Positions 1-22,327 of a stretch of DNA of 64,000 bases are shown here, one piece after another. Position 1 is the first letter of the stretch, and the number at the start of each line of letters is the position of its first letter. Origin of the DNA: Candidatus Heimdallarchaeum aukensis (GTDB lineage Archaea; Asgardarchaeota; Heimdallarchaeia; Heimdallarchaeales; Heimdallarchaeaceae). The stretch is taken from the NCBI GenBank assembly GCA_021513695.1, contig CP084166.1, positions 480,001-544,000 of the forward strand. The letters run 5' to 3'. A program made the position numbers and the translations under genes. The notes under the pieces were generated by a model. That model was not told the origin of the DNA and did no database searches. It saw only the letters and a list, made by a program, of their open reading frames with translations.

Positions 1-2
1 TA

Positions 3-503
3 TTGAAAGGATACTTTGCTATGTGGCTGTCACAGTATCTATCTTACAATTTTGGAAATAATGACCCTTGGAGCATTTGCTTTGCAGGTATTTTTGCTAT
101 ACTTGGACATAATTGGCCAATATGGTTATTAAGTCATGGTGGAAGAGGAGTAGCAACAACTCTTGGTAATTTGATGTTTTTCAATCCTATCTTCTTTTTA
201 ATATGGCTAGCAACGTTTTTCTTACTCAGTTTTCCTCTTATGTATTCAGCTATCGTTTACATCACTAGTTTTATAGTTATGGGAGTTATTCTATACTTCT
301 GGCCCTGGTATGTAAGTCCGATGGTAACAGAACTGAAAAACGACCCCAATCTAGGTTTTTTATCAATGATAATGCTTTTCGGTATAACTCTTGTTGTTCT
401 TTCGCGTCAAAAATCTAATTTCATGAAAATAAAGAATGGTGAAGCAAAAAGAATGAAATTATGGAAAATATTCCAAGGAAAGGCAGATGAAGCCTTAAAA
501 TAA
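3..503 (+). CDS. plsY: PlsY-like glycerol-3-phosphate acyltransferase (acyl-phosphate dependent); N-terminus cut by the window edge
   Basis: The ORF is open to the left edge. GHNWPIW...GGRGVATTLG matches the PlsY signature (GH-x-[FW]-P ... GGKGVAT). The profile is hydrophobic and multi-helix throughout. Confidence 0.7.
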   Translation: MKGYFAMWLSQYLSYNFGNNDPWSICFAGIFAILGHNWPIWLLSHGGRGVATTLGNLMFFNPIFFLIWLATFFLLSFPLMYSAIVYITSFIVMGVILYFWPWYVSPMVTELKNDPNLGFLSMIMLFGITLVVLSRQKSNFMKIKNGEAKRMKLWKIFQGKADEALK

Positions 504-541
504 ATTCTTTCTTTCTTTTTCTATCTTTTTAACAATTTTTT

Positions 542-1288
542 CTATTTTAGTTCTATTAATTCAGAGGATTCTATTTCTAGCGAAAGAGTCTCTTTTTCAT
601 TTTGTATCTTTAAAAGTCCATTATCCTCAATTCCTTCTACTGTATATTCTTGATTTTTGTAGATAATATTATTTTTGCACAATATATCATAAGAATTAAA
701 TTCCTTCAAGATTTCTTTAAGATTGTTTTTTAGAACCTTGATAATATAGTTTTTAATTTGCTTATGCAATTCTTTTGTTAATTTCTCATTATCTACTTTT
801 ATTTTCAAGGATTCATTTATTGAAATAGCTATAGAATTGACTGGAGAGTCTAAAGAAAGAACTTTGTTATTTGTATTTATTCCTATTCCAACGAGTAGAA
901 AATTACAATTTGTATCTTTCACTGTATCAATTAAAATTCCGCCTAACTTTCTTTTTTCTAGAATTATATCATTTGGCCATTTAATTTTAACAGGTATAGA
1001 CAGAATTGTTTCTATTGCTTTTCTTACTCCTAAAGCAATAGAATAATGAAGAAAAGCATATTGTTTTTGATTTATTTCTTCTTTTTTACAAAAAACAAAC
1101 GTTCCCCACCAACCTCCTTTTGGAGAAAACCATTTACTCTGTTTTCTTCCAATACTTGCAGATTGTTCCTCTGCTATTATTAACAAATCTTCATTTTTTG
1201 CTAATTCTAAATAAGACAAAGCTACATTTTGAGTGGAAGGAACAGATTGAAAATGAATGATTTTCAAGGAAAAGGATTCTTGAGCCAT
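542..1288 (-). CDS. birA: Biotin-[acetyl-CoA-carboxylase] ligase (biotin protein ligase, group I, no HTH)
   Basis: GRKQSKWFSPKGG matches the GRGRxWxSPxG biotinyl-AMP loop. KIKWPNDI and VGIGINTN are also present. Length is 248 aa. Confidence 0.8.
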   Translation of the reverse strand: MAQESFSLKIIHFQSVPSTQNVALSYLELAKNEDLLIIAEEQSASIGRKQSKWFSPKGGWWGTFVFCKKEEINQKQYAFLHYSIALGVRKAIETILSIPVKIKWPNDIILEKRKLGGILIDTVKDTNCNFLLVGIGINTNNKVLSLDSPVNSIAISINESLKIKVDNEKLTKELHKQIKNYIIKVLKNNLKEILKEFNSYDILCKNNIIYKNQEYTVEGIEDNGLLKIQNEKETLSLEIESSELIELK

Positions 1289-1401
1289 TATTTTCGTCGA
1301 AAAACACTTTTATTTAAACTTTTTTTTGTTTTATCAAGATAAAATTATTTAATCATAAAAACAAATTGGGTTTTTAAAAGACCTTTTTTTCTTTAAACTT
1401 A

Positions 1402-2976
1402 ATGGCTCGTATTACTCATATTGGACATGATAAAGGAATTTTGGAAGAAAAAAGACAAACAATACTTTCACTAAGAGAAAAGTCTCTAAAAGGTGGGGGA
1501 GAGGAAAAAATAGCCAGTCAACACAATAAAGGAAAGCTTACTGCGAGAGAGAGAATAGAATTATTGGTTGACGAAAATTCTTTTTGCGAAATAGATCAAA
1601 TAAGAAAATCTCAACATTCTGAATTAGAAATGGAAAAAATAGAAGGAGACGGTGTAGTAACAGGTTATGCAACTATTAATGGTAGACGAGTCTTTATTTA
1701 TAGTCAAGATTTTACCGTTTTGGGAGGAAGTTTAGGAAAAACTCACGCAAAAAAAATTTGTAAAGTTATGGATCTTGCTCTTCAGAGTGGGTGTCCTATA
1801 ATAGGGTTACTTGACTCTGGAGGAGCAAGAATTCAAGAAGGAATAGATTCTCTAGCTGGTTATGGTGAAATATTTTATAGAAATGTAATGAGTTCAGGGG
1901 TAATTCCCCAAGTTTCTATTATTTTGGGTCCTTGTGCTGGAGGAGCGGTCTATTCTCCTGCCCTAACTGATTTTATTATTATGAATCAAATTAATTCATT
2001 TATGTTTGTTACTGGCCCTCAAGTTGTTAAGACAGTTACCGGTGAAGATGTTTCATTCTATGATTTAGGAGGAAGTGAAGTACATAGTTCACTTAGCGGA
2101 GTAAGTCATTTAGTAGGAGAAGATGAAGAGGAAACGATAAATTTAGCTAAGAGACTCTTATCTTACCTTCCATCGAACAATTTAGATGACCCTCCACAAG
2201 AAATAGATGATATCGAAGAAAATGATCAAGATATTCTTTCTGATATTATTCCTGAGCAGGAAAATGAACCTTATGATATGAAAAAAGTAGTTGAAACAGT
2301 TTTAGACCAAGACAGTTTCTTTGAATTACAAGAAAATTGGGCAAAAAACATTATTGTTGGTTTCGGAAGATTAGAAGGTTTAACTGTCGGTATTATTGCA
2401 AACCAACCTTTATTTCTTGGAGGAGCTATAGAATATAATGCTGCGGATAAAGCAGCAAGATTTATTCGTTTTTGTGATTCATTTAACATCCCTATAATTA
2501 CTTTTGTTGATGTACCTGGTTTTATGCCAGGATTAAAACAAGAGGAAGAAGGAATAATTCGTCATGGAGCTAAAATGCTTTTTGCTTATTCAGAAGCTAC
2601 TGTCCCAAAACTTGCAGTAATAACAAGAAAAGCTTATGGAGGAGCTTATATTGTTATGAGCTCAAAGCATTTAGGAGCTGATATTAATTTTGCTTGGCCT
2701 ACAGCAGAAATAGCTGTCATGGGGGCAGAGGGAGCTTGTAATATTATTTATAGAAAAGAACTGAAAAAAGCTGAAAATCCAGAACAAGCTTTGCAAGATT
2801 TTGTTGTAAAATACAAAAAACAGTTCAGCAATCCTATTCGAGCAGCTGAGAAAGGATATGTTGACAAAGTTATTTTGCCTGAAGAAACAAGAATTGAACT
2901 TTCTAATGCCTTGAAATTTTTACAAAATAAAAGGATAGATACCCCGAAAAGAAAACACGGGAATATTCCACTTTAA
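1402..2976 (+). CDS. pccB: Acyl-CoA carboxylase carboxyltransferase subunit (PccB/AccD5 type)
   Basis: 524 aa. Motifs seen: LDSGGARIQEG, GPCAGGAVYSPAL, DVPGFMPG, HGAKMLFAY, AYGGAYIVM. It has the two-halved crotonase-like carboxyltransferase layout. Confidence 0.9.
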   Translation: MARITHIGHDKGILEEKRQTILSLREKSLKGGGEEKIASQHNKGKLTARERIELLVDENSFCEIDQIRKSQHSELEMEKIEGDGVVTGYATINGRRVFIYSQDFTVLGGSLGKTHAKKICKVMDLALQSGCPIIGLLDSGGARIQEGIDSLAGYGEIFYRNVMSSGVIPQVSIILGPCAGGAVYSPALTDFIIMNQINSFMFVTGPQVVKTVTGEDVSFYDLGGSEVHSSLSGVSHLVGEDEEETINLAKRLLSYLPSNNLDDPPQEIDDIEENDQDILSDIIPEQENEPYDMKKVVETVLDQDSFFELQENWAKNIIVGFGRLEGLTVGIIANQPLFLGGAIEYNAADKAARFIRFCDSFNIPIITFVDVPGFMPGLKQEEEGIIRHGAKMLFAYSEATVPKLAVITRKAYGGAYIVMSSKHLGADINFAWPTAEIAVMGAEGACNIIYRKELKKAENPEQALQDFVVKYKKQFSNPIRAAEKGYVDKVILPEETRIELSNALKFLQNKRIDTPKRKHGNIPL

Positions 2977-2997
2977 AATTATTAAGAGGAGAATTTT

Positions 2998-5900
2998 ATG
3001 AAAACTCTAAAAGAACTAAAAAATGAACTACAAATTAAATATCCAATTTTTGGATATAATCCTATCGGACTTGCTGATCCCACGTTAGCTATTGAAATCT
3101 CCAAACTTGGAGGAGTGGGATTAATTAACACTATTGGACTTGAACAAGAAGAACTAACTAAGATTCTTGATCAATGCGAACTTAATCTACCCACACAACT
3201 ATGGGGAATAAGGATTAACGATCTTTCTCACATTAAATGGATTAATCATGAACGAAGTATTCCAATCGTTATCCTACCGGAGAAACCTACAAGATTACAA
3301 CTGGATAAACTGCGTAAAATAAGTAAATTTATTGTCGCTGAAGTTTTATTTGTTGAAGAAGCAAAAAGTCATCTTGAATGGTCAGATTTCTTTTTAGTTA
3401 AAGGTATTGAAGCAGGAGGAAAAGTTGGTACAAAAGCTTCTTTTATTCAGATTCAAGAGTTTTATGAAACTGGATGGCCTTTTATCATTCAAGGAGGAAT
3501 GGGTGCTTTTAATATTAGTTCTGCTCTAATAGGAGGAGCAATAGGAGTAGTTTTTGAGGGACAATTATATCAATTTCCTGAATGTCCTCTTTCTGAAGAA
3601 GCGAAAAAGTATCTTGCTTCTTTAGGTGAAAATGATTCTTTCATTATCAATGAAAGTGGTAAAGAAGGTTACAGAATTTCTGGAAAACTAGCTAACAAAG
3701 CAATTAGAGAAATAAAACAACTAGAAGAAGAATCAAGTGAGGAAAAAATACTTGATAGAATTACTGAATTTGAAAAACCTCACGATCAATTTGGTTTTAA
3801 GAGTCAGAACATTAAACACGCATTTTTACCACTAGGTAACGATGTTTTCTTCTCCACATTCTTCAAGAAAAGATTTGGAAATTTAACAAATTTTGTGGAG
3901 CAAGCTCTTAAGATAGCTGATGAACAAATACAGATTGCTCTAAGAAATTGGCCTTTTGCAAAAGGTTCTACTTTATCCAACTTTCTAGGTACAAAATATC
4001 CTATTATTCAAGGCCCTATGGCTAATGTTTCTGATAATGTAGACTTTGCTATTAATGTAGCGAAAAATGGAGCTCTTCCTTTCTTAGCTTTGGGTGGATT
4101 ACTAAAAGAAGAAACTGAGGAGCTTTTTGATAAAGTTAGAGAAAGTGAACTTGTAAAATATTCCTATGGTTGTGGGATTATAGGTTTAGAAGCAGTTAAA
4201 CAAAGGAGAGAAGAGCACCTTTCTTTAATGAGAGATCTTAAACCTCCCTTTGCTTTGATTGCTGCTGGAACAGTTAATTTAGCTAAACAAGTACAAGAAA
4301 TGGGTTTTAAGACTTTATTACACACTCCCGCTCTATCAATGTTTAAAGATTCTATCAAAAATGGAATAGATTTACAAATTTTAGAAGGGAGTGAATGTGG
4401 AGGACATATTGGACTTCTTTCATCTTTTATTTTATGGGAAAGTATTTTGGAATTTTTAGATGAAAATAGAGAACAGATAGAAAAACCTTTGAAAATAGCT
4501 TTTGCAGGAGGGATATCTGACGGCACTAGTTCTGCGATGCTAGCAGTTATGATTGCTAAACATCTAGATATTATAGAATCAGCAATACAGATGGGTACAT
4601 CCTACTTATTTACTGAAGAGATTCTAGAAACAAAGGCTTTAACTGGATTTTATCAAGAACTTCTTCTTAATTCTAACTACACCAGAATTATAGGCTCAAC
4701 AGTAAATACTCGAGCACGAGCTGCTCCTTCACCTTTTGTAGATCAAACAATTAAAAGAGAAAGAGAGAGAATTAGACAAAAAATACCAATAAAAGAAAGA
4801 AAAGAACTTTACGAGAAAGATAATCTAGGAGCTTTAAGAATTGCAGCTAAAGCTGAAAAATGGAATAACGATCATGTTCCTGGTACTGCAACTACACAGT
4901 TTATAAAAATCGATGAAGAGGAACAGAAAAACTTTGGTTGCTTTATGGCTGGAGAAGTAATAGCAAAGAAACGTAGTATTTACAAGATAGATGACCTACA
5001 CTATGATATTTCAGTAATTGGAAAAGAAATCTTAGAAAAGCAATCAACTTCTATTGCTGATTATTTACTTTCAAAAGAAAAACTAGAAGCTTATGTTTCT
5101 AAAGAACAAAGTCCTCTAGTTATAGATAGTACTAATAAAATTGCTATAGTAGGAATAGGTAGTTTCTTCCCTGATGCTCCAAACACAGAAAAATTCTGGG
5201 AAAATATTGTTAACAAACATTATGCTGTAACTGAAGTACCTATTGAAAGATGGGATCCTAAATATTATTATGACGAAGATCGAACCGCTCCAGACAAGAC
5301 TTATACCAAAATTGGAGCGTTTGTAAAAGAATTTAAATTTAAACCTATTCAATTCAAGATTCCTCCTAAAGTAGCTGAAAAGATGGATGAAGTTCAGAAA
5401 TGGTCATTAATTGCTGCAAAAGAAGCTTTAGAAGATGCTGGAATACCCACAGATGGCAAGAAACGCCTACCTATAGGAGTAATTGTAGGCAATGCTTTAG
5501 GTGGAGAAAATCAGAGAATTACTAACAGGAGATTACACTATCCAGAAATTGAAGAACAACTAAAAATTTTATTAAGCTCAAAATTGTCTGATGAGGAAGT
5601 AGAAAAGTTTGTTTCTTCTTTCAAGAAAGAATATCTCAGTAAATACGCAGAGATTACAGAGGATACTATGCCTGGAGAATTATCTAATGTTGTTGCGGGA
5701 AGAATAGCCAATATATTCAATTTATCTGGTAAATCAATGACAACAGATGCTGCATGTGCTTCTTCTCTTGCTGCTCTGGACATTGCGGTAAAAAGTTTGT
5801 TGAATAACGATTTTGATACTATTCTTGTTGGCGGAGCAGATAGATCTATGGATGTTTCTTCTTATGTTAAATTCAGTAAGATCGGTGCTCTTTCTGCAAC

Positions 5901-7518
5901 TGGTTCTCGACCTTTTGATTCCAAGGCAGACGGTTTTGTAATGGGAGAAGGATGTGGTTTTCTTGTCTTGAAGAAATTGAAAAAAGCTATTGAAGACAAT
6001 GACAAAATTTATGCCATAATTGATTCTGTTGGTTCTTCCTCTGATGGTAAAGGAAAAGGAATTACTGCTCCTAATCCTTTAGGACAAAAAGAAGCTATTG
6101 AAAGAGCTCTTGAACAAGCTAAAGTTTCTCCTTCTGAGATAGATTTAATTGAAGCACATGGAACTTCCACCATAGTAGGAGATAAAACAGAAGTTCAAGT
6201 TTTAAATGAGATTTTCACAGAAAAACAAAAAGAAAGAAAAAGGAAAATAGCTCTTGGTTCAATTAAAAGCCAAATTGGTCATTTAAAGAGCGCAGCAGGT
6301 ATAGCTTCTGTTATAAAAGTAGCTTTAGCTCTTGACAAGAAAATTCTTCCACCAACGATAAATGTTCAAGAACTTAATCCTGCGATTGATTGGAATAATT
6401 CTAATCTTTTTGTTAATCTTGATGCTCAACCATGGGAAAAGGTTGATAACTCTATCAGAAGAGCAGGAGTTTCTGCTTTTGGTTTTGGAGGAACAAATTA
6501 TCATACAATCTTGGAAGAATATATTCCAGAAGCACAGTACATAGAAAAAGAAAAGCAACCAATAGTTGAACTAAAAGAACAAAAAGAAGAAGTTTGCTTC
6601 CTTTATACTGGACAAGGAAGTCAATATTTAGGCATGATAAAGGAACTTTATGATAATTATCCAACTGTTAGAAAAACAATAGATGAAGCTTCAGTTATTG
6701 CTAAAGAGAGTTTAAATGCTGATTTGCGTGAAATAATTTTTGGTTCACCTCAACTTTCCAAAGTTGAAAATGAGGAAAGATTAAGACAAACAGAATACAC
6801 TCAACCTTCTCTCTTTGTAGTCGAAGTTGCTTTAACTAGATTATTGAAAGAAAAAGGAATTGAGCCTACAAGAGTAGCTGGACATAGTTTAGGAGAATAT
6901 ACTGCTTTAGTTGCTGCGGGAGTGTTCTCTTTTGAAGATGGATTAAAAGCTGTAATAGAAAGAGGAAAAGCGATGGCAAAAGCTTCTAAAAGTATCCCTG
7001 GAGCAATGGCAGCTATTCTTACATCTCAAGAAAAAGTTAAGGAAATTATAGAAAAGGTAAATGAAGGTTATATAACAGTAGCCAATTATAACTCATTAAA
7101 CCAAACAGTGATTTCGGGAGAAGAAAAAGCTGTAAACAAAGCTATAGAACTTTTCTCTGCAAGAAAAATAAAAGCAATAAAATTAAATGTTTCAACAGCT
7201 TTTCATTCTATTATTGTTAAAGATGCAGAAATAGAAATGGAGAGAGTGCTTAACAGCCTGACTTACAATAAACCTTCAATTCCTGTCTATTCAAATGTAA
7301 CGGGAAGTTTGTACCCTGACAAACCCTCTAAAATTAAAGAACTTCTAATTAATCAGCTCTGTAATTCTGTTCAATGGGTTAAGATTTCAGAAATGGTCAT
7401 TAATTGCTGCAAAAGAAGCTTTAGAAGATGCTGGAATACCCACAGATGGCAAGAAACGCCTACCTATAGGAGTAATTGTAGGCAATGCTTTAGGTGGAGA
7501 AAATCAGAGAATTACTAA
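2998..7518 (+). CDS. Type I PUFA-synthase/PKS-like megasynthase, part 1 (ER-like, ER, KS, AT); 3' end is an out-of-frame read into a tandem duplication
   Basis: ATG 2998 lies 5 nt after a GAGGAGA SD. aa 14-245 form an NMO/FabK-like barrel with KGIEAGGKVG, where a Lys codon (3421-3423) sits where His is usual. aa 332-665 form a PfaD/FabK-type enoyl reductase (YPIIQGPMANVS, LEGSECGGHIG, His codon 4405-4407). aa 714-1170 form a ketosynthase (IAIVGIGSFFPDAP, TTDAACASS with Cys codon 5755-5757, EAHGTST, SQIGHLKSAAG). This is followed by a malonyl/acyl transferase (FLYTGQGSQY, GHSLGEY with Ser codon 6886-6888, AFHS). The last ~44 codons (from 7386) are frame-shifted KS sequence. Confidence 0.85.
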   Translation: MKTLKELKNELQIKYPIFGYNPIGLADPTLAIEISKLGGVGLINTIGLEQEELTKILDQCELNLPTQLWGIRINDLSHIKWINHERSIPIVILPEKPTRLQLDKLRKISKFIVAEVLFVEEAKSHLEWSDFFLVKGIEAGGKVGTKASFIQIQEFYETGWPFIIQGGMGAFNISSALIGGAIGVVFEGQLYQFPECPLSEEAKKYLASLGENDSFIINESGKEGYRISGKLANKAIREIKQLEEESSEEKILDRITEFEKPHDQFGFKSQNIKHAFLPLGNDVFFSTFFKKRFGNLTNFVEQALKIADEQIQIALRNWPFAKGSTLSNFLGTKYPIIQGPMANVSDNVDFAINVAKNGALPFLALGGLLKEETEELFDKVRESELVKYSYGCGIIGLEAVKQRREEHLSLMRDLKPPFALIAAGTVNLAKQVQEMGFKTLLHTPALSMFKDSIKNGIDLQILEGSECGGHIGLLSSFILWESILEFLDENREQIEKPLKIAFAGGISDGTSSAMLAVMIAKHLDIIESAIQMGTSYLFTEEILETKALTGFYQELLLNSNYTRIIGSTVNTRARAAPSPFVDQTIKRERERIRQKIPIKERKELYEKDNLGALRIAAKAEKWNNDHVPGTATTQFIKIDEEEQKNFGCFMAGEVIAKKRSIYKIDDLHYDISVIGKEILEKQSTSIADYLLSKEKLEAYVSKEQSPLVIDSTNKIAIVGIGSFFPDAPNTEKFWENIVNKHYAVTEVPIERWDPKYYYDEDRTAPDKTYTKIGAFVKEFKFKPIQFKIPPKVAEKMDEVQKWSLIAAKEALEDAGIPTDGKKRLPIGVIVGNALGGENQRITNRRLHYPEIEEQLKILLSSKLSDEEVEKFVSSFKKEYLSKYAEITEDTMPGELSNVVAGRIANIFNLSGKSMTTDAACASSLAALDIAVKSLLNNDFDTILVGGADRSMDVSSYVKFSKIGALSATGSRPFDSKADGFVMGEGCGFLVLKKLKKAIEDNDKIYAIIDSVGSSSDGKGKGITAPNPLGQKEAIERALEQAKVSPSEIDLIEAHGTSTIVGDKTEVQVLNEIFTEKQKERKRKIALGSIKSQIGHLKSAAGIASVIKVALALDKKILPPTINVQELNPAIDWNNSNLFVNLDAQPWEKVDNSIRRAGVSAFGFGGTNYHTILEEYIPEAQYIEKEKQPIVELKEQKEEVCFLYTGQGSQYLGMIKELYDNYPTVRKTIDEASVIAKESLNADLREIIFGSPQLSKVENEERLRQTEYTQPSLFVVEVALTRLLKEKGIEPTRVAGHSLGEYTALVAAGVFSFEDGLKAVIERGKAMAKASKSIPGAMAAILTSQEKVKEIIEKVNEGYITVANYNSLNQTVISGEEKAVNKAIELFSARKIKAIKLNVSTAFHSIIVKDAEIEMERVLNSLTYNKPSIPVYSNVTGSLYPDKPSKIKELLINQLCNSVQWVKISEMVINCCKRSFRRCWNTHRWQETPTYRSNCRQCFRWRKSENY

Positions 7519-9378: not shown

Positions 9379-12300
9379 AATTGAAGAGATGTATAACGAT
9401 GGAGGAAGAATTTTTGTAGAAGTAGGACCTAAAAAAGCATTGTACAACTTTGTTAAAGATATTTTAGGTGAAAAAGAAGACATTCAAACTTTTCTTACAT
9501 TAAACCCGAAAGTAGGAGAGTTAAAATCTTTTAATGATACTGTCTCTAAATTAAAAATGAGCAAAAGAAGAGAAACCGAAACCCCAGTTCAAACTAAAGA
9601 AAAAATAGTTTACAAAGAATCAGCACTAGATGTTTTACTTAAAAATAAAGAGATTAACAACTTGGTCTCTAAACCCTATTTCCGTGAGTATTTGAAAGAG
9701 AACAGCAATCTTCTTTCATCTATAATGAAACAAGGTTACGAGCAGTTCTCAAAGTACAGAGAATCATTGGTTATTGCTGAAAAAGCTAAATATTGGGATA
9801 TAAACTTTGATCTTATTGGTGTTACTGGTGTTGGAATTGGTCTCCCAGGAAAGAATAGAGCTGTTTTCTCTGATGATAATTTTGATCTTATTCTCAATGG
9901 AACAAATCTTATCGAATCTGTTGAAGATACAATAAAACAAGAAACTTTAGACAAAAACATCGTTAGGTTAGTTAAATCTCCTGATGGTAATGCAACTTTT
10001 GAAGCAATTGACGATATAAGTAAAGTTATTCAACTTGCAGCACAGATAGGAGAATTAAACTTCAAAGAATTAGGTATAGAAGATAAATTGGCTAAAGCTT
10101 TAGACTCCACTTTTATTATGGCTATAGGTGCAGGACTAGAAGCGTTGAAAGATGCTGGTATTCCTCTTGTTGAAAGCAAAATAGTTACTTCAACTGGAAA
10201 AACTTTGAAAGGGAGCTGGACTTTACCAGAATCCTTACAACATGATACTGGAATAGTTTTTGCTTCTGCTTTTCCCGGATATGATAATTTAGTAGATGAA
10301 GTAACAAGACATCTTGTAGCTAAATTTGAAAACAAAACTAATAAAGAGATTGAGGAGATATTTGAGCAATTAATTAATGTTGTATCAAACCCTGAAGCAA
10401 AAGAAGAGATCTCTAACTGGTTCTTGGAGAAACAATCTCTACTGGAAGAAAAAGAAGAAAAGTATACTTTTAGTAGAGAGTTCCTTTACAAAGTTTTGTC
10501 TATGGGGCACTCTCAATTTGCCCAATTTATTAAAGCTAAAGGTCCGAATACTCAAGTCAATGCTGCTTGTGCTTCTACAACCCAAGCAATTGGTGTAGCA
10601 GAAGATTGGATAAGAACTGGAAGATGTAAGAGAGTAATAGTAATAGCTGGAGACAATGCTGCAAGCAAGAATCTGTTACCTTGGATAGGTGGGGGATTCT
10701 TAGCAGCTGGGGGAGTAACCACAAAAGCCGATGTTAAAGAAGCTGCTTTACCTTTTGGAAAAGAAAGACATGGATTAATTATAGGTTCAGCTTCTGCAGG
10801 TCTTGTAATTGAAAGCAGAGAATCCTATGAAGAAAGAGGAGTTAAACCAATAGTAGACCTTGTGGGTACTTATATGGCAAATAGTGCTTATCATGGTTCT
10901 AGATTAGATGTCAACCATATTTCTGAAGAACTTGAAAGCTTTATTGAAAAAGTAGAAAGAAGATATAATATCGACAGGAAAAATATCGCTAAAGAAGGTA
11001 TTTTTGTCTCTCATGAAACTTATACACCTGCAAGAGGAGGAAGTGCAGAAGCAGAAATTCAATCACTTCTTAATGTTTTCAAAGAAGATGCTTATTCTAT
11101 GACCATAATAAACACAAAAGGATTTACAGGTCATTCAATGGGTGCAGGAATAGAAGAAGCTGTAGCTATTAAAGCAATAGAAAAAGGTAAGATTCCTCCA
11201 ATTGCTAACATAGAGAAACTTGACCCTGCCTTTTCTAAATTTAAGTTCTCAAAAGGAGAAAAGAGAAGATTTTCCTTCGCTTTGAGATTAGCAGCTGGAT
11301 TTGGGTCACAATTAGCTTTTGCTCTCTTCAGGTTAAATACTTACGACAACAGATTCTCTGCCCAATACAATGAATGGCTCAAGAGTCTTGGTGGTGGCAA
11401 AGAAGAGTTATTTGTTGAAGGCAGAGTACTTAAACTCAAAACAGATAATAAGAAAAAACAAGCTGATTTAGTTAAGAAACCAGCAGTACAAAAAACTGTT
11501 GAAAAGAAAATTAAAACTGTTACAAAAGCACCTACAGATATTCTTCAAGTTGTAAAAGATATTATTTCTGAAAAAACAGGTTATGAAACAGAAGTCATTG
11601 AAGAAAATATGCATTTAGAAGAAGATCTTGGGATTGACAGTATTAAAGCAGCAGAAATAATGAACGATATTAGCGATAAATGGTCAATACCTCAAGAAAA
11701 ACTCTTCGAACAATTTGATATCGATACACCAGGAAAAATTGCAAAGTTCATTTCTGAAAACACAAGCGCTCCTGAAGAGACAAGTTATTCAGTTGAAACA
11801 ACTGTAGCAAAAGAGGAAGTAAAAAGAGCAGAAACTTCTAGTGTTTCAACAGGAGATATTTTAGTGCGAATTAAAGAAGTAATTGGAAAACACACAGGTT
11901 ATGACATTCAAGATCTAGATGAAAACTATGACCTAGAAGAAGATCTGGGAATAGATACAGTAAAACAAGCAGAAATTTTTGGAGATTTAAGAGATTTATT
12001 CGGATTGGATTTAGATGAGACTTATGCTTTAGCAGATTATCGAACAATAGCTGACATTGCCCAAGCAATATCTACAGAGAAACCAGTGGAAAAGGTTAAA
12101 CAAGTGGAAACTGAAGAAAGCGGAGAGATTAGAACAGCACAACAACCAACAATCATATCTGAAGCTGAAAGTTCAATTTCCAGAGAAGAAGTTACAAAAG
12201 AAGTGCTTTCAATTATCTCAGAAATTACAGGATACGATACAGAAGATATAGAAATAGAGATGGATCTAGAGGAAGATTTGGGTGTTGATAGTATCAAGAT

Positions 12301-15300
12301 TGCTGAAATTCTAAGCTCTTTGGGAAGTAAGTTCGACCTTGAATTTGATGAGATGTCTGATCTTTCAGGAATTAGAAATACAGAAGATATAGTGGAAGCA
12401 GTGATAAAAATTAAGCAATCCATTGAACAAACTCAAACCCCAACCAAAACAGAAGAACAATTAGCTGTAAGTCAAAAACTTAAAGTTGAACAAGAAGAAG
12501 AAATAGTTATTCGTAGTGTAGAACCTGTTCTAAAGCCTTTAGAACAAAGTGAAGTAAATAAATTTAATCTAGAAGATAAAAATCTCTTACTTCTAGATAT
12601 TCATTCAAAAGAAGCCAAATATATCTATTCTTTACTTGAACAGAAGAAGGCTAAAATTGAGCTTGTTAGGATTAATTCTGAAGACTCAGAAAAACCAAAT
12701 AATAATAAATATGACTTAATCTTAATCTTATTACCAGATGATCACAATTCTGCAAATGATACTAAATACTTTGAGCAACTATTTCTTACCCTACAACAGC
12801 TAGAGTACAATCATAATACTAAGATTGTTTCTTACTCTGTTGAAGACTATTTAGACTCTAAAAAGGAGATAATTCCTTTAAGTGGAGGTATATCCGCTTT
12901 TGTTAAGACTATTGGTCAAGAATTTGAACTAGACATTAAACATGTTTATTCCACAAAACCTGAAGAACTAGTTACAGAGTTGGAAAATTGGGATAAAAAC
13001 CTTGAAGTTATTTATTCAGAGGGTAAAAGATACATTTTCAGTCACATGAGAAAAATACCTCTAGAACAATTACAAAAAGAAAAAATCGAACTTACAGAAG
13101 ATGATCTTATACTTGTTACTGGAGGAGCAAGAGGTATCACTTATGAATGTATTAAAGAACTTACAAAAGATGCTAAACCTTCAATTGCTATCGTTGGTAG
13201 AACTAAACTTCCAGAAGATGTATCTGAATTGCTCTTCTTAACCGACAAAGAAATAGCAAACAAAAAAGAAGAGATAAAAGAAAAACTTGCTCAAGAAAAT
13301 GAAAAAGTTACTCCAGTGATGATAGAAAAAGCTTGGAAACGCTTCCTAAACACTGTTGAAATTGCAAAGAATATTCTCTATTTAATTGAAAATGAAGTGA
13401 ATGCTAACTATTATTCTGCAGATGTTTCAGATGAAGAACAAATGAAAAGTGTTTTGAGTCAAATTGAAGAAGATTTCGAAAAAACTATAACTCTTATTGT
13501 ACATGGTGCGGGAATAGAAGAATCTAAAGCTTTCAAGAAAAAGAAACTAGAAATGGCAAAGAAAATAGTACAAGTAAAGATTTCAGGGTTATACAATATT
13601 CTAAATAATATAGATCAATCTAATTTGAAGAAGATCATCTGCTTTAGCTCAATTGCAGGAAGATTTGGTAATAGAGGACAAGTGGATTATGCTTTTGCAA
13701 ATGGTTATCTAGCTAGAACATGCTGGAAGTTTAAACAACAAGGAATTAACGCTCTAGCTATAGATTGGTCAGCTTGGGCAGATATAGGCATGGCAACACA
13801 AGGTTCTATTCTTAAAGTGCTGAAAGCTGCAGGAATAACTCCCATTCCATTAAAAGAAGGAATAAGAATATTTTCTGAACTAACCAATTACAATGTAGAA
13901 CAAAGTGAATTAATAGTTGCAGGAAAACTTGGACTTCTTCTAAAAGAAATAGAAGATAAAAAAACAAGTGGTCAACACGATACTAGTATGAACACAGAGA
14001 GTTATCCAATGATTGATGAAATTAGAAAAACAGACAACGGTTTTATTGCTTCAAAGACACTAAAATATGATTATGACTTATACATGAGAGATCATCAAAT
14101 CCAAGGATTGCCAATATTTCCTGCAGTAATGGGATTAGAATTCTTCGCTGAGATGTTCAAACTTACAACAGAAAAAGATGTTTACGCAATAGCAGAAGTA
14201 TCGTTTAGAGAAGCAATTAAACAGTTTAAGAACAAAAATGTTGAACTTCAATGTTCATTTGATACAGAAAGAGGGGATATGGAAATTAAAACAATCTTTA
14301 CAGACATTAAAGGAGTTCAAAAAGAAAAGAAACACTTCTTCTGTAAGTCTGTAAAAGATACGACAGAAAAAAGCTATAAGAAAAAGAAGATAGAAAAAAG
14401 AGTGATACCACTACTTTCCAAAGAAGTGATCTATCAGCTTTTCTTCCATGGTCCAAGTTTTCAAGTTTTGGAGAATTTGAATGAGATAAAAGGAAATATC
14501 ATCTCCACTAATGTCCAGATTCCAAATCTGCCTTTATTCAAAGATGAAGAATTGAAAACTATTCTCGTTCCTCGAGCAATAGAAGCGGCTTTACAGACAG
14601 CAGGGTTGTATGACATGTTCATTAACAATGTTGTTTCATTGCCATCAAAAATAAAAAACTTGGAAGTATACAAGGAAACAGAAGCTGTTTTTGCTGAAGC
14701 TGAATTCCTAAAGATAGAGGAAAGACATAGTTTCTTCAATGTAAAGATTTACGATGCTGAAGGAGAAGTAATAATGGTTTTAGAACAACTAGGAATGATA
14801 CATACTTCTATGCCCATAAATTTGGACGAAAAAGGAAAGAAACTCTTCCAGATGATTAAAGGATATCATGAAATAAGAACAAAAGTAGATGACGAAAAAG
14901 TAGCTGTTTTACCTATTCACAAAGTAGTAGAAGAATACAGAAAAAATAGACAAGAACTAGAAAATAAACTAGTTGCTTACGAAAAAACAAGATTTACTAA
15001 AATATCCAACGAAAAAAGAAAAATGGAATATTTAGCGGGAGTAATCCTTGCTAAAGAACTTTTTTCCAAATATGAAAACATTACCGATTTCAGAAGTATA
15101 GAAATAAAAAAGAAGAGTAAGGGGCAACCTTACTTTTTCAACAGACAACTAAAAGAAGAAACGGATTGGTATGTTTCTATTAGTCATTCAAATGATTTCG
15201 CTGTAGTCTCTATTGAGAAACAACCAGTAGGAATAGACATAGAAAAAGTAGAAGAAAGAAGTAAAAGTTTCTATGGCGAAGTTTTTTCAGATTATGAATT

Positions 15301-15538
15301 ATCAAAAATTGCTGATGACCATACTTTAGGAACAAAATATTGGACTGCTAAAGAGTCATTAACTAAAGCATTAGGAGAAGGATTACATATTAAACTAAAA
15401 GAAATTGAGTTTGGTTACAACGATGGCAAATTTGATCTAAAAAAATATCCTTCTTCTCTAAAACAAGATCAATTGCAGACTTCTATTGAATCTATTGAAG
15501 CAGCAGGTTATGTTGTTTCTAAATGTGTAATAAAATAA
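7577..15538 (+). CDS. Type I PUFA-synthase/PKS-like megasynthase, part 2 (KS remnant, AT, second KS, 3 ACP, KR, DH, PPTase); the called start is not a real start
   Basis: The frame is the KS frame of duplication copy 2, and TTG 7577 is internal to the KS. KS Cys codon is 7748-7750 and AT Ser codon is 8879-8881. The second KS-like domain spans aa 745-1255 (GVTGVGIGLPG; NAACAST with Cys codon 10568-10570; SHETYTP; TGHSMGAG). ACP1 has LGIDS (Ser codon 11639-11641), ACP2 has LGIDT (Thr codon 11957-11959) and ACP3 has LGVDS (Ser codon 12290-12292). KR shows LVTGGARGIT from 13106 and GNRGQVDYAFAN. The PKS-type DH has HQIQGLPIFP (His codon 14093-14095). The C-terminal 4'-phosphopantetheinyl transferase has GIDIEKV from 15230 and WTAKESLTKALG. 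Confidence 0.85.
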   Translation: MSDEEVEKFVSSFKKEYLSKYAEITEDTMPGELSNVVAGRIANIFNLSGKSMTTDAACASSLAALDIAVKSLLNNDFDTILVGGADRSMDVSSYVKFSKIGALSATGSRPFDSKADGFVMGEGCGFLVLKKLKKAIEDNDKIYAIIDSVGSSSDGKGKGITAPNPLGQKEAIERALEQAKVSPSEIDLIEAHGTSTIVGDKTEVQVLNEIFTEKQKERKRKIALGSIKSQIGHLKSAAGIASVIKVALALDKKILPPTINVQELNPAIDWNNSNLFVNLDAQPWEKVDNSIRRAGVSAFGFGGTNYHTILEEYIPEAQYIEKEKQPIVELKEQKEEVCFLYTGQGSQYLGMIKELYDNYPTVRKTIDEASVIAKESLNADLREIIFGSPQLSKVENEERLRQTEYTQPSLFVVEVALTRLLKEKGIEPTRVAGHSLGEYTALVAAGVFSFEDGLKAVIERGKAMAKASKSIPGAMAAILTSQEKVKEIIEKVNEGYITVANYNSLNQTVISGEEKAVNKAIELFSARKIKAIKLNVSTAFHSIIVKDAEIEMERVLNSLTYNKPSIPVYSNVTGSLYPDKPSKIKELLINQLCNSVQWVKIIEEMYNDGGRIFVEVGPKKALYNFVKDILGEKEDIQTFLTLNPKVGELKSFNDTVSKLKMSKRRETETPVQTKEKIVYKESALDVLLKNKEINNLVSKPYFREYLKENSNLLSSIMKQGYEQFSKYRESLVIAEKAKYWDINFDLIGVTGVGIGLPGKNRAVFSDDNFDLILNGTNLIESVEDTIKQETLDKNIVRLVKSPDGNATFEAIDDISKVIQLAAQIGELNFKELGIEDKLAKALDSTFIMAIGAGLEALKDAGIPLVESKIVTSTGKTLKGSWTLPESLQHDTGIVFASAFPGYDNLVDEVTRHLVAKFENKTNKEIEEIFEQLINVVSNPEAKEEISNWFLEKQSLLEEKEEKYTFSREFLYKVLSMGHSQFAQFIKAKGPNTQVNAACASTTQAIGVAEDWIRTGRCKRVIVIAGDNAASKNLLPWIGGGFLAAGGVTTKADVKEAALPFGKERHGLIIGSASAGLVIESRESYEERGVKPIVDLVGTYMANSAYHGSRLDVNHISEELESFIEKVERRYNIDRKNIAKEGIFVSHETYTPARGGSAEAEIQSLLNVFKEDAYSMTIINTKGFTGHSMGAGIEEAVAIKAIEKGKIPPIANIEKLDPAFSKFKFSKGEKRRFSFALRLAAGFGSQLAFALFRLNTYDNRFSAQYNEWLKSLGGGKEELFVEGRVLKLKTDNKKKQADLVKKPAVQKTVEKKIKTVTKAPTDILQVVKDIISEKTGYETEVIEENMHLEEDLGIDSIKAAEIMNDISDKWSIPQEKLFEQFDIDTPGKIAKFISENTSAPEETSYSVETTVAKEEVKRAETSSVSTGDILVRIKEVIGKHTGYDIQDLDENYDLEEDLGIDTVKQAEIFGDLRDLFGLDLDETYALADYRTIADIAQAISTEKPVEKVKQVETEESGEIRTAQQPTIISEAESSISREEVTKEVLSIISEITGYDTEDIEIEMDLEEDLGVDSIKIAEILSSLGSKFDLEFDEMSDLSGIRNTEDIVEAVIKIKQSIEQTQTPTKTEEQLAVSQKLKVEQEEEIVIRSVEPVLKPLEQSEVNKFNLEDKNLLLLDIHSKEAKYIYSLLEQKKAKIELVRINSEDSEKPNNNKYDLILILLPDDHNSANDTKYFEQLFLTLQQLEYNHNTKIVSYSVEDYLDSKKEIIPLSGGISAFVKTIGQEFELDIKHVYSTKPEELVTELENWDKNLEVIYSEGKRYIFSHMRKIPLEQLQKEKIELTEDDLILVTGGARGITYECIKELTKDAKPSIAIVGRTKLPEDVSELLFLTDKEIANKKEEIKEKLAQENEKVTPVMIEKAWKRFLNTVEIAKNILYLIENEVNANYYSADVSDEEQMKSVLSQIEEDFEKTITLIVHGAGIEESKAFKKKKLEMAKKIVQVKISGLYNILNNIDQSNLKKIICFSSIAGRFGNRGQVDYAFANGYLARTCWKFKQQGINALAIDWSAWADIGMATQGSILKVLKAAGITPIPLKEGIRIFSELTNYNVEQSELIVAGKLGLLLKEIEDKKTSGQHDTSMNTESYPMIDEIRKTDNGFIASKTLKYDYDLYMRDHQIQGLPIFPAVMGLEFFAEMFKLTTEKDVYAIAEVSFREAIKQFKNKNVELQCSFDTERGDMEIKTIFTDIKGVQKEKKHFFCKSVKDTTEKSYKKKKIEKRVIPLLSKEVIYQLFFHGPSFQVLENLNEIKGNIISTNVQIPNLPLFKDEELKTILVPRAIEAALQTAGLYDMFINNVVSLPSKIKNLEVYKETEAVFAEAEFLKIEERHSFFNVKIYDAEGEVIMVLEQLGMIHTSMPINLDEKGKKLFQMIKGYHEIRTKVDDEKVAVLPIHKVVEEYRKNRQELENKLVAYEKTRFTKISNEKRKMEYLAGVILAKELFSKYENITDFRSIEIKKKSKGQPYFFNRQLKEETDWYVSISHSNDFAVVSIEKQPVGIDIEKVEERSKSFYGEVFSDYELSKIADDHTLGTKYWTAKESLTKALGEGLHIKLKEIEFGYNDGKFDLKKYPSSLKQDQLQTSIESIEAAGYVVSKCVIK

Positions 15539-15572
15539 TATGGAGATTAAAAAAAAAAAAAGGTGATAATAT

Positions 15573-16334
15573 ATGTTACAACTGAATTATGATATAAAAT
15601 TTAGAAAGGATTTCATTCATGGAATTCTTTATTTGCCGGATGAAGAGGGGCAGTTCCCTTTAGTTATAAGATTGAACGGTTTTCCGGGCAATTCTCCAGA
15701 AAAAGAAGAACAAAGATTAGCAGATATTATCACCCAGAATAATATGGCTTTTTATGCCTTTGACTATGTAGGAGTAAGAAAAAGTACAGGGACATTTAAT
15801 TATTATACGAGTTTGGAAAACATAAATACTGTTATAACAGATTTATCACATCATCCTCGAATTAATCCTGCAAAGATTGCTCTTCTTGGAGAAAGCTTCG
15901 GAGGAGCAATGGCAATAAGCCAAGGAGTAAGAGACCAAAGAATAAAATGTATTGTTTTAAGGTCTCCTGTATATGATACTGAAGTTATTCCTCAAATACC
16001 GTCTTTTAATACTTTAGTTAAAATATGGTCCAGAAACAATCAAATACGTTTCCCTAAAGGAGACATAAGTGAATTATACTACAAACAAACTAATCTTTAC
16101 AATCCTAAAAAAATAGCAAATTTAGTTAATTGCCCCGTAAAATTGATTGCAGGAGATAAAGATGAGTTGTTGGAAGTTAAGGGTTTTAGAGAACTTTACA
16201 AATGTTTACCACGGAAACTAAGAAAAGGAATTGATATCATTAAAGGAGCAGATCATAACTTTACTAAACAAAAACAGTTTATAGAATTAAAGAGTGAACT
16301 TTCCAGCTTTTTGACTTGTTGCCTTTTAGGGTAA
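15573..16334 (+). CDS. Alpha/beta-fold hydrolase (dienelactone hydrolase / BAAT-type thioesterase-like)
   Basis: GESFGG forms a GxSxG nucleophile elbow. Downstream AGDKDELL supplies the Asp and GADHNF the His. An AGGTGAT SD lies 6 nt before the ATG. Length is 253 aa. Confidence 0.75.
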   Translation: MLQLNYDIKFRKDFIHGILYLPDEEGQFPLVIRLNGFPGNSPEKEEQRLADIITQNNMAFYAFDYVGVRKSTGTFNYYTSLENINTVITDLSHHPRINPAKIALLGESFGGAMAISQGVRDQRIKCIVLRSPVYDTEVIPQIPSFNTLVKIWSRNNQIRFPKGDISELYYKQTNLYNPKKIANLVNCPVKLIAGDKDELLEVKGFRELYKCLPRKLRKGIDIIKGADHNFTKQKQFIELKSELSSFLTCCLLG

Positions 16335-16355
16335 ATAACTTATGGAGTGCAAAAG

Positions 16356-16838
16356 ATGAAGAAAAAAATAATCTACAACAATGAAGAATACATAATAGAA
16401 GCTAAAGGAGAAGACGAGATAGTAGTGAATAATAAGACTTTCAAAGTTAACTTAAAAGAGAAAAACAAGAATTTTTTCAATATAGAAATTCAAGGAAAGA
16501 AGTTTATTATAGAAGTAAGAGAAGGAGAATTCTATTTAGACGGAGAGAAAATAGAAAAATTATCAATTAGCCCCTATTTTCCACAATTAAAGAAACAAAA
16601 ACAAATGATTAACTCTCAAAAAGAAGTAGTAAAAGCACCTATACCAGGAACTATAACTCAAATACTAGTTAAAGAAGGAGATACAGTAAAAAAAGACCAA
16701 GAATTATTTATCCTTGAAGCGATGAAAATGAGAAATAGAATCTTAACAACCATTGACAAAGGTGTAGTAAAAAAAATCTACGTTAGCGAGAATGAAACTG
16801 TATCTCAAGATCAAAAACTAGCTATAATTGAAAATTAA
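16356..16838 (+). CDS. accB: Biotin carboxyl carrier protein (archaeal AccB-type, biotinyl domain)
   Basis: The C-terminal biotinyl domain carries the EAMKM motif (ILEAMKMRNRI). A GGAGTG SD lies 6 nt before ATG 16356, whereas the ORF caller started at GTG 16347. Its size of about 160 aa resembles archaeal AccB. Confidence 0.8.
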   Translation: MKKKIIYNNEEYIIEAKGEDEIVVNNKTFKVNLKEKNKNFFNIEIQGKKFIIEVREGEFYLDGEKIEKLSISPYFPQLKKQKQMINSQKEVVKAPIPGTITQILVKEGDTVKKDQELFILEAMKMRNRILTTIDKGVVKKIYVSENETVSQDQKLAIIEN

Positions 16839-17073
16839 ATAAAAAAATAACAAAACAAATTTATTGCAAAAATAATTTAAAATTCGCACAAATATTTGGA
16901 TACTTCTTCTTTTTTAAATTCAAATTTTATCAAAAACTTGAAAAGAATGCTAAATAGTCTATTTTTTAAATAAATAGGAAACAAAAAAAGTTTAGACTAA
17001 GTGGTTAGTTTTTGAAGTATAAATGAGGAGAAATAGGAACTGTATAATTTAAAGAAGAATAAAAAAAATAGGA

Positions 17074-17661
17074 CTAATCAACCATAAGTTTGGGAAATTT
17101 TGAAAGTTCCATTAATTTCATGAATTTTTTTCCTTTCTTAAAAATAGTATCTATACATTCAATTATTATATCCAAAAGCTCTTCTACTTTTTCTTTTTTT
17201 ACAGGTTTTAGTCCATGAGCAAGTATTGATTCATTTCTCTCTTTTAAAAGGTCTTTCATTTTGTTGGATGAAGAAAACATTTTCCCAAGATCATCATTCA
17301 AATCGTCTAAAACTAGATAACAATCATATAATCCCAACTTTACTTTTGAACCATTACTTTTTCTTTCTTTGAAATAACTTATACGTTGAGAAGAAACTCC
17401 TAACTTTTCTAATTGCTCTAAGGATATGTCATGGGGAGGTAAATTGTAGGCACTCTTTAATCTATACTGTGCCATAAGTTCTACAGCTCTGTAGAGCCTA
17501 GCCATTGCATCATCAAACTTTTCTTCTTTTAATCGACGTTTTGCGTTATTTAATAAATCTGCAAGAAAATAAAGGTCTTTCTCTATTTTTTTATCACTTT
17601 TATGTAACAAGTCGCACAAAAATTCTTTATTAAAACTATATTCTTTGCCAAGCTGTTTCAT
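17074..17661 (-). pseudogene. Truncated duplicate of the csx1 3' half (C-terminal 195 aa, HEPN part)
   Basis: Its translation is identical to residues 215-409 of the 19770-20999 product. Its 5' end is the duplication junction at 17690/17691. Confidence 0.85.
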
Positions 17662-17679
17662 TTTATCAAAAGCTTCTTT

Positions 17680-18234: not shown

Positions 18235-18269
18235 TATGGAGATTAAAAATAAAAAAAAGGTGATAATAT

Positions 18270-19031: not shown

Positions 19032-19052
19032 ATAACTTATGGAGTGCAAAAG

Positions 19053-19517: not shown

Positions 19518-19769
19518 CTATAATTGAAAATTAAATAAAAAAATAACAAAACAAATTTATTGCAAAAATAATTTAAAATTCGCACAAATATTTGGATACT
19601 TCTTCTTTTTTAAATTCAAATTTTATCAAAAACTTGAAAAGAATGCTAAATAGTCTATTTTTTAAATAAATAGGAAACAAAAAAAGTTTAGACTAAGTGG
19701 TTAGTTTTTGAAGTATAAATGAGGAGAAATAGGAACTGTATAATTTAAAGAAGAATAAAAAAAATAGGA

Positions 19770-22325: not shown

Positions 22326-22327
22326 AT

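Follow-up and report, generated by a model that had tools for sequence, protein, structure and literature searches.

The hallmarks of the Pfa-like 'secondary lipid synthases' are a PfaA-like ketosynthase (KS), a malonyl-CoA acyltransferase (MAT), acyl carrier proteins in tandem (ACPs), a ketoreductase domain (KR), in some cases a dehydratase (DH), all of these on one protein, together with an enoyl reductase (ER) of the FabK/PfaD type and an Sfp-type phosphopantetheinyl transferase (PPTase). Among these, Shulse & Allen in 2011 named the enzyme of D. autotrophicum 'Type S' and suggested that it might be a core fatty acid synthase (FAS); this bacterium is without fabA and fabZ, and archaea are not mentioned (PMC3098273). 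Type R synthases have the order KS-MAT-CLF-ACP(3-6)-KR, where CLF is a chain-length factor, plus a PPTase, with an acetyl-CoA carboxylase gene lying inside the Koribacter cluster (PMC3098273). The ArsAD and Hgl synthases make saturated or hydroxylated C22-C32 chains (PMC3098273, PMC13291983), and fused pfaD-pfaA genes are known in bacteria (PMC13291983). Archaea have been stated to lack FAS I, FAS II, ACP and ACP synthase, and an archaeal family of ACP-independent fatty acid synthases has been described (bioRxiv 10.1101/2024.07.05.601840), while the ester-lipid potential of Asgard archaea has been treated as a matter of scattered PlsY/PlsC acyltransferase homologues (PMC8813620, PMC6737245). 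Here we analyse a stretch of 64,000 nt from Candidatus Heimdallarchaeum aukensis (contig CP084166.1, positions 480,001 to 544,000; hereafter the window), in which genes for an acyl-CoA carboxylase and a biotin ligase are interleaved with the gene for a synthase that has all of these hallmarks and with a hydrolase gene. We judge it likely that the genes form a genuine operon, maintained by selection in Heimdall-group Asgard archaea, for self-sufficient acyl-chain synthesis.

Scanning the window proteins, taken from a list of open reading frames (ORFs), against Pfam and NCBIfam profiles placed all the core genes in their families. The first 17 kb of the window, whose G+C content is ~30% throughout, hold the 3' portion of plsY, birA, a gene for a PccB-type carboxyltransferase, two huge ORFs related to fatty acid and polyketide synthases (FAS/PKS), an alpha/beta hydrolase gene and a gene for a biotin carboxyl carrier protein (BCCP). 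birA (542-1288, reverse strand) encodes a biotin-protein ligase without a repressor domain (PF03099, 3.2e-19; TIGR00121, 4.6e-39, 134 bits against a cutoff of 83). It is divergent from the pccB/accD-type gene for the (12S) carboxyltransferase subunit of acyl-CoA carboxylase (1402-2976; PF01039, Carboxyl_trans, 1e-188), from which a 113-nt intergenic region separates it. The latter is followed, likewise on the forward strand, by the megasynthase gene (2998-15538, including a duplicated segment described below), the gene for a hydrolase of 253 aa (15573-16334; Pfam Hydrolase_4, 2.1e-14) and the BCCP gene (16356-16838; PF00364, 1.1e-16), the product of which is 160 aa long if counted from the ATG, although the ORF opens at a GTG at 16347. 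Successive gaps on this coding strand measure 21 nt between pccB and the megasynthase gene and then 34 and 21 nt, spacings compatible with co-transcription of the pccB, synthase, hydrolase and BCCP genes. The biotin carboxylase subunit of 524 aa is encoded by accC (35862-37436, reverse strand; NF006367, 3.3e-187, 622.7 bits against a cutoff of 597), further along the window.

A preliminary description of this DNA had proposed a co-located malonyl-CoA supply (AccC, BCCP and PccB with BirA), a fully reducing ACP-dependent synthase and a hydrolase, and had called the combination unusual for an archaeon. Both statements are supported, and the contig is archaeal. Its gene inventory is likewise confirmed at or near the coordinates proposed, with very strong family matches. 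accC does begin at 35862 and ends at 37436, not at 37361. The megasynthase carries the ER, KS, AT (acyltransferase), ACP, KR and DH activities claimed for it and in addition a PPTase and a second KS, and its apparent division into two ORFs is due to a 1,993-bp duplication.

To find related loci, one genome per prokaryotic species was scanned for the N-terminal ER-ER region of the synthase, and the window proteins were then mapped onto the loci. Eleven species-level Asgard genomes contain the region; they bear the labels Heimdallarchaeota, Hodarchaeota or Promethearchaeota, and the contigs measure up to 461 kb. As far as these contigs reach, all 11 have the same arrangement of a divergent birA, then pccB, a synthase with one KS-AT, the hydrolase and BCCP genes, and accC, and the six-gene order recurs in three strain-level contigs. 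birA lies upstream and divergent in 10 Asgard loci, and accC directly follows the BCCP gene in L001-L004, L008, L009, L011, L082 and L084. One contig of a metagenome-assembled genome, labelled 'Candidatus Thor…' at NCBI, has the same upstream order and ends inside the synthase gene. With the same six genes linked in 11 species-level genomes, the clustering is far beyond chance, and what had been noticed in a single sequence is kept across Asgard loci. Against the orthologous genes of a 97% identical relative (contig L084), dN/dS came to 0.014 (hydrolase), 0.03 (BCCP), 0.06 (accC) and 0.115 (synthase), values that indicate purifying selection on the core genes.

Outside the six-gene core, no gene is conserved across all of the loci. 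A Hod-like subgroup has genes of a beta-oxidation type directly upstream of birA-pccB-synthase, encoding an acyl-CoA dehydrogenase, electron transfer flavoprotein alpha and beta subunits and one or two thiolases (L005, 105-7230; L006, 3012-7337; L009, 149-4582; L085, 1425-7251).

Since the nearest relatives outside the Asgard archaea are bacterial and the synthase gene is split in the window assembly, contamination with bacterial DNA, chimerism of the contig or decay into a pseudogene has to be considered. We regard any of these as exceedingly improbable. Genes of archaeal type lie on the same contig, among them those for the archaeal NreA (44995-46233, reverse strand) and an Arf-family small GTPase (53960-54523, reverse strand; Pfam Arf, 1.3e-47). 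The tetranucleotide composition of the cluster is host-like, with a correlation (r) of 0.96 to the rest of the window and 0.95 to an orthologous Heimdall locus, against -0.06 to a Desulfobacter homologue, so that contamination and the chimeric join to bacterial DNA raised in the preliminary description are rejected on composition as well as on the NreA and Arf genes. A hydrolase 99% identical to that of the window is annotated as Ca. Heimdallarchaeaceae and, with the NreA and Arf-family genes, assigns the window to the Heimdall-group Asgard archaea. Furthermore, the cluster has been recovered in independent assemblies and studies, in which the split is missing, and the dN/dS values lie well below 1.

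The split itself was traced by a blastn comparison of the window against itself. Positions 5393-7385 are repeated head-to-tail at 7386-9378 as an exact second copy (1,993 bp, 100% identical), and the length is not a multiple of 3. Because the duplication shifts the frame, the synthase appears as two ORFs, of which the first (2998-7518) ends in a partial AT and the second (7577-15538) starts in a partial KS. Removing one copy joins the part encoding ER1, ER2, KS1 and the start of the AT (2998-7385; Pfam NMO, ketoacyl-synt and Acyl_transf_1; FabK, 3.3e-30) to the part encoding the end of the AT, a linker with KS2, ACP1-3, KR, DH and PPTase (9379-15538; Pfam and NCBIfam matches), and yields one uninterrupted ORF of 3,515 aa. 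A short-read contig from run SRR15988954 (L081), 100% identical to window positions 1-14969, has the segment once and reads through both of its borders. The 97% relative L084, annotated as Ca. Heimdallarchaeaceae, has a single synthase gene of 3,519 aa without the duplication, and the nine more distant Asgard orthologues are single ORFs of 3,350-3,574 aa. As L081, L084 and these nine orthologues are all unsplit, the single gene of 3,515 aa is the true state. The duplication is most likely an assembly artefact; otherwise it would be a private inactivating mutation. Decay into a pseudogene is rejected on the same unsplit contig and full-length orthologues, including the 3,519-aa gene, and on the low dN/dS.

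In the collapsed protein, to which all residue numbers refer, the domain order by Pfam and NCBIfam is ER1-ER2(FabK-like)-KS1-AT(malonyl)-KS2-ACPx3-KR-DH-PPTase. ER1 (residues 1-330; window 2998-3987, forward strand as for all domains) and ER2 (residues 331-705) are both FabK-like barrels, of which ER2 has the ECGGH motif and ER1 is without the catalytic His. They are followed by KS1 (residues 713-1190) with a Cys-His-His triad, by a malonyl-type AT with GHSLGE and TAFH motifs, starting at about residue 1201, and by a linker with a FabF-like KS2, again with Cys-His-His (residues ~1560-2200; ~9668-11590). Three ACPs (~11558-12400) have their attachment residues at Ser2217, Thr2323 and Ser2434. 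A KR with its structural subdomain (~12548-13990), a PKS-type double-hotdog DH (PS-DH/PKS_DH_N; ~14003-14860) and a C-terminal Sfp/HetI-type PPTase (ACPS and AASDHPPT_N; ~14948-15535) complete the protein. PfaA (TIGR02813) is the best NCBIfam family, with 650.8 bits over KS-AT, 136.4 over the ACPs and 174 over KR-DH; the scores come from three separate fragments and not from the whole protein, to which the 1,010-bit cutoff refers. The catalytic residues are present and conserved across an alignment of 10 orthologues: the Cys-His-His of KS1 and KS2, GHSLGE and xAFH of the AT, the Gly-rich motif and Tyr of the KR, His...Pro and ExxxQ of the DH, GIDxE and WxxKE of the PPTase, and ECGGH of ER2. 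The conserved triad leads us to reject KS2 as a Cys-less CLF. No family match to a FabA-type dehydratase/isomerase was found anywhere in the synthase with Pfam or NCBIfam.

Homology searches with domain-sized queries found that the nearest relatives outside the Asgard archaea are bacterial. Identity is ~30% for the ER domains; for the KS2 region it is 40-50%, with matches to proteins of the Type R phyla and of many others, in at least 833 clusters. Four fragments of the AT-KS2 type (P0132, P0138, P0160 and P0145), 43-50% identical and on contigs of 2-4 kb, are labelled as Halobacteriales or Thermoplasmatota archaeon; these could be further archaeal occurrences or binning errors. Two architectures were seen among the bacterial homologues, one of the Desulfobacterales type (ER-ER-KS-KS-AT-linker/KS2-ACPn-KR-DH) and one pfa/hgl-like (ER-ER-KS-AT-ACPn-KR plus a separate KS-AT protein). 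In a neighbour-joining tree of ER2 and KS1 (790 columns, 100 bootstraps), the Asgard sequences form a clade with 100% support, as do those of the Desulfobacterales type, and the two together are separated from the rest with the same support. This placement makes the Asgard enzyme a Pfa-like secondary lipid synthase of archaeal form, sister to the Desulfobacterales Type S.

The likeness to Type S, represented by Desulfobacterium/Desulforapulum autotrophicum HRM2 and other Desulfobacterales, is detailed. In each, two FabK-like ER barrels in tandem stand at the N-terminus and are fused to a KS, an additional KS-like domain lies between the AT and the ACPs, the ACPs are in tandem and have the unusual motif LGIDTVKQxEI (with Thr), and KR-DH is present. 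They differ in that Type S enzymes have a further KS between KS1 and AT (KS-KS-AT), whereas in the Asgard loci just one KS precedes the AT, and in that the Asgard sequences are not nested in the bacterial clade but form their own, fully supported one. Moreover, Type S has bacterial hosts, identity in the ER region is only ~31-33%, and, of the bacterial loci that we fetched, only some have a PPTase-like segment and none has a linked carboxylase, birA or hydrolase gene, except for an accC after the Spirochaetia locus L016. As the bacterial relatives, apart from this accC, do not have the carboxylase linkage, it arose, and was then kept, in archaea.

Other described synthases are more distant. 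With Type R (Koribacter, Solibacter, Elusimicrobium and Roseiflexus) the Asgard enzyme shares the AT-KS2-ACPn core, but Type R is described without ER and DH and has its PPTase as a separate gene, and the Asgard KS2 keeps its Cys-His-His. The PUFA synthase PfaABCDE of marine gammaproteobacteria shares the PfaA-like KS-MAT-ACPn-KR-DH, the FabK/PfaD-type ER, the Sfp-type PPTase and iterative use of malonyl units. In contrast, the Asgard enzyme has neither PfaB nor the two FabA-like dehydratase/isomerase domains that PfaC carries beside its KS-CLF, and it has all of its activities on one polypeptide; since the FabA-like domains are missing, polyunsaturation would not be expected. We reject a PUFA synthase proper, given that the only DH found is of the PKS type, with none of the FabA type, and that KS2 keeps its Cys. 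ArsAD, which makes phenolic lipids in Azotobacter, and Hgl, which serves heterocyst glycolipids, are also Pfa-like, iterative and without FabA-type domains, and related ER-KS-AT-ACP-KR loci of Fischerella (L038) and Azotobacter (L055) were among the bacterial matches. These differ in having Ser-type ACPs (LGIDSIKRVEI), no KS2 insertion and several subunits, in being coupled to a type III PKS or to reductase/glycosyl steps, and in falling on another branch of the tree.

The enediyne PKSE resembles the Asgard enzyme in being an iterative type I enzyme whose C-terminal PPTase is self-activating and whose release enzyme is separate. Its order is KS-AT-ACP-KR-DH-PPTase, however; it is without an ER, has only one ACP, is partnered by a hot-dog thioesterase and makes a polyene. 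It was rejected on the tandem ERs, the second KS, the two or three ACPs, the alpha/beta hydrolase partner and the lack of any match to an enediyne-specific family. Animal type I FAS (KS-MAT-DH-ER(MDR)-KR-ACP-TE) and the fungal/CMN type (AT-ER-DH-MPT/ACP-KR-KS-PPT) were rejected because the order here is ER-ER-KS-AT-KS-ACPn-KR-DH-PPT. The ER of fungal FAS is also of the FabK type, yet the Asgard architecture and best family matches are PfaA/PKS-like. The archaeal ACP-independent FAS (thiolase/DUF35/SDR/MaoC), which uses CoA-bound intermediates and a ketothiolase with a DUF35 scaffold, was rejected as well, as the cluster has ACPs and decarboxylating KS domains and no DUF35. In sum of domains the synthase is of a known Pfa-like kind, and in this respect the claim of an undescribed system in the preliminary description does not stand. 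What appears to be undescribed is the archaeal, single-polypeptide variant with its fused PPTase, interleaved carboxylase and birA genes and Asgard-only hydrolase. We found no prior description of an archaeal synthase operon of this kind in the full-text literature, coverage of which leaves out most subscription journals, so that an earlier mention is possible.

From these parts, a route to acyl chains can be proposed. BirA would biotinylate BCCP, and AccC, BCCP and the PccB-type carboxyltransferase would convert acetyl-CoA into malonyl-CoA. The C-terminal Sfp-type PPTase would activate the tandem carrier domains of its own polypeptide, after which the AT would load malonyl units and the PfaA-type KS1 and the FabF-like KS2, both predicted to be catalytically competent, would elongate the chain iteratively. 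Each unit would be fully reduced by the KR, the PKS-type DH and the FabK-type FMN enoyl reductase (ER2), and the alpha/beta hydrolase would release or transfer the finished chain. Because there is no FabA-type dehydratase/isomerase, we expect a fatty-acyl chain that is saturated and probably long.

Several observations weigh against this proposal. In the window assembly itself, the 1,993-bp duplication breaks the synthase gene. For the carboxyltransferase, the closest enzymes carry the annotation propionyl-CoA carboxylase. The fold of the hydrolase is generic and gives no proof of thioesterase activity. In all orthologues, ER1 has a variable residue in place of the His of the E(C/A)GGH motif, and most orthologues have Thr where the phosphopantetheine-bearing Ser of the ACP is expected. 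Finally, cultured Lokiarchaeia have, to our knowledge, ether lipids only.

For ER1, a structural role offers itself. The AlphaFold2 (AF2) model of residues 1-720 (pLDDT 90.6, pTM 0.91) has two barrels in a confident mutual orientation, and a Foldseek search with the ER1-ER2 model returned FabK structures at the top (2z6i and 9pl0, TM 0.81-0.86), followed by PfaD and trans-AT PKS enoyl reductases. The ER domains of PUFA synthases act as dimers, and two ER domains of thraustochytrids form a heterodimer (PMC13311796). By analogy with these, ER1 probably has no catalytic role and serves ER2 as a partner barrel in an intramolecular pseudo-dimer.

The threonine is a small enzymological puzzle of its own. 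The motif LGIDT[VI]KQ[AV]EI, with Thr for the canonical Ser, occurs in the ACPs of the Asgard orthologues and of the Desulfobacterales-type (Type S) homologues and, among the homologues compared, is common to these loci only; LGIDSIKRVEI is the form found in the pfa/hgl-like bacterial relatives. The window protein and its close relatives differ in having Ser, Thr and Ser in ACP1, ACP2 and ACP3, and hence Ser in two of the three. If Thr could not be modified, the other orthologues would be without a working ACP. We know of no precedent for phosphopantetheine on Thr, but enzymes of the Asgard and Type S clade may carry the arm on Thr instead of Ser.

The biotin-dependent acyl-CoA carboxylase set is complete, with AccC above its curated cutoff, BCCP, PccB, and a BirA that is also above cutoff. 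BCCP has the biotinylation motif EAMKM, and its C-terminus is identical to those encoded on L083 and L084. In subunits and families, the set equals the three-subunit acyl-CoA carboxylase (AccC-BCCP-PccB) of archaea and actinobacteria; it differs in that the genes are interleaved with a megasynthase gene here and the enzyme would not be for CO2 fixation or propionate metabolism. The opposite reading, in which the carboxylase serves such another pathway (propionate/methylmalonyl-CoA metabolism or CO2 fixation) and its adjacency to the synthase is fortuitous, draws on the beta-oxidation-type neighbours upstream in Hod-like loci and on the carboxyltransferase itself, which is most like proteins annotated as propionyl-CoA carboxylase or methylmalonyl-CoA decarboxylase; its best solved relatives are PccB proteins (1vrg, 4e-197; 1xnw, 2e-192). 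Yet the residue aligned to position 422 of S. coelicolor PccB, which we take to be the substrate-specificity position, is Ile and not Asp, within the motif GGAYIVM, in 13 of 13 Asgard orthologues. Ile at this position is reportedly the acetyl-CoA-permissive state, as ascribed to Diacovich et al. 2004. The AT is of the malonyl type, and the synthase and hydrolase genes sit between pccB and BCCP/accC in 11 of 11 genomes in spite of ~50% protein divergence, a linkage missing in the bacterial relatives apart from the Spirochaetia accC. We therefore consider service to another pathway very unlikely, and a carboxylase that supplies malonyl-CoA to the adjacent synthase the better account.

Every complete Asgard locus has the hydrolase gene directly 3' of that for the synthase, and the hydrolase family has matches in Asgard archaea only (29 clusters). 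The hydrolase triad, Ser108-Asp197-His228, is invariant in 27 sequences. A Foldseek search with the AF2 model of the hydrolase (pLDDT 95.5) returned lipases, monoacylglycerol lipases, esterases and the PKS trans-thioesterases GrgF and DcsB. Given its fixed position after the synthase, the most economical reading of the modelled fold is that it acts as a trans-acting thioesterase or acyl-release enzyme.

The resemblance to GrgF and DcsB also bears on the kind of product. The locus might be a specialised-lipid or secondary-metabolite cluster, with a product that is not an ordinary fatty acid but is partly reduced, hydroxylated or of very long chain, as are the alkyl chains of heterocyst glycolipids and phenolic lipids. 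The tandem ACPs and two KS domains would suit such a product, the distribution is patchy (about a dozen species-level Asgard genomes), and every non-PUFA relative that has been characterised makes specialised chains of C22-C32 (PMC13291983, PMC3098273). On the other hand, the KR-DH-ER set is complete with conserved active sites, a dedicated carboxylase suggests high flux, and no tailoring genes (thioester reductase, glycosyltransferase or type III PKS) are conserved around the core. On balance, a specialised product seems to us possible but rather unlikely, and full reduction in every cycle is the outcome that the domain set would predict.

The fate of the chains leads to plsY, the 5' end of which lies beyond the window edge. 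The window holds its C-terminal 166 aa (3-503, forward strand; PF02660, G3P_acyltransf, 3.7e-18; TIGR00023, 6.6e-19), and the full gene, for 242 aa, is present in the identical contig L081; in both, plsY is 39 nt from birA. This adjacency would fit a synthase that is the primary FAS, with its products esterified to glycerol phosphate by PlsY to give bacterial-type membrane lipids. Type S has been proposed as core FAS of D. autotrophicum in the absence of fabA and fabZ (PMC3098273), and PlsY homologues are known in some Asgard archaea (PMC6737245). However, the 11 other Asgard loci have no plsY in their upstream 10 kb, and the gene adjoins the cluster only in this lineage, so that its membership in the operon is doubtful and the extension to glycerolipids in the preliminary description is not borne out. 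PlsY requires acyl-phosphate, and in the window we found neither plsX nor plsC and saw no enzyme that makes acyl-phosphate. Two circular Ca. Heimdallarchaeum genomes are reported to be without PlsC (PMC8813620). Taken together, PlsY-dependent membrane lipids from this synthase are unlikely.

In its broadest form, the idea is that Heimdall-group Asgard archaea make fatty acids de novo with an ACP-dependent megasynthase and a carboxylase of their own and build them into PlsY-type ester lipids. We give this little credence as a whole; if true, a living archaeal lineage would straddle the lipid divide, and it would be one among the closest known prokaryotic relatives of eukaryotes. The picture in which archaea lack FAS is altered by an operon that is conserved, under selection and equipped with both a complete ACP-dependent synthase and a malonyl-CoA supply of its own. 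The operon is a concrete, clonable candidate source of fatty acyl chains in the archaeal lineage nearest to eukaryotes, and because the whole pathway amounts essentially to three transcription units and one 10.5-kb gene, the Asgard fatty-acid question becomes directly testable.

The distance of accC from the BCCP gene is peculiar to this strain. Alignments to the 97% (L084) and 94% (L082) relatives break at ~16860-16883 and resume at 35858, and in these relatives accC is ~70 nt after the BCCP gene, which marks 16861-35857 as a strain-specific insertion of ~19 kb. It contains a duplicate copy of neighbouring sequence and, by Pfam and PADLOC, csx1 (CARF-HEPN), the type III-B genes cmr6-4-3-2-1 and a gene for a STAND NTPase-TPR protein, as well as genes for an MNT-like nucleotidyltransferase and a P-domain protein, two ORFs of no assigned family and DDE transposase fragments. 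This defence island is not part of the lipid operon and accounts for the separation of accC. No CRISPR array was found anywhere in the window in spite of the type III-B genes, and no tRNA genes or Rfam families were found in it.

The duplicate copy in the island is a second tandem repeat, in which 14992-17692 recurs at 17688-20388 (forward strand) with 99.9% identity over 2,702 bp, a period of 2,696-2,697 bp and two single-base indels of the homopolymer type. It covers the 3' end of the PPTase domain, the hydrolase and BCCP genes and the 3' part of csx1. The repeat is not present in L082 and L084. Precisely at its borders, the short-read contigs of run SRR15988954 are interrupted, with an overlap of 30 nt (k-1), so that the junction k-mers are probably present in the reads. 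This duplication may be real, heterogeneous in the population or an artefact. It gives rise to what looks like a stand-alone PPTase (17680-18234), to a further hydrolase (18270-19031), to a truncated csx1 (17074-17661) and to a second BCCP (19044-19517), and the PPTase, hydrolase and BCCP were rejected as extra pathway genes, as they are copies produced by the duplication. In the second BCCP, a 1-nt deletion replaces the last ~18 residues, and the first copy is the one that matches the independent contigs L083 and L084.

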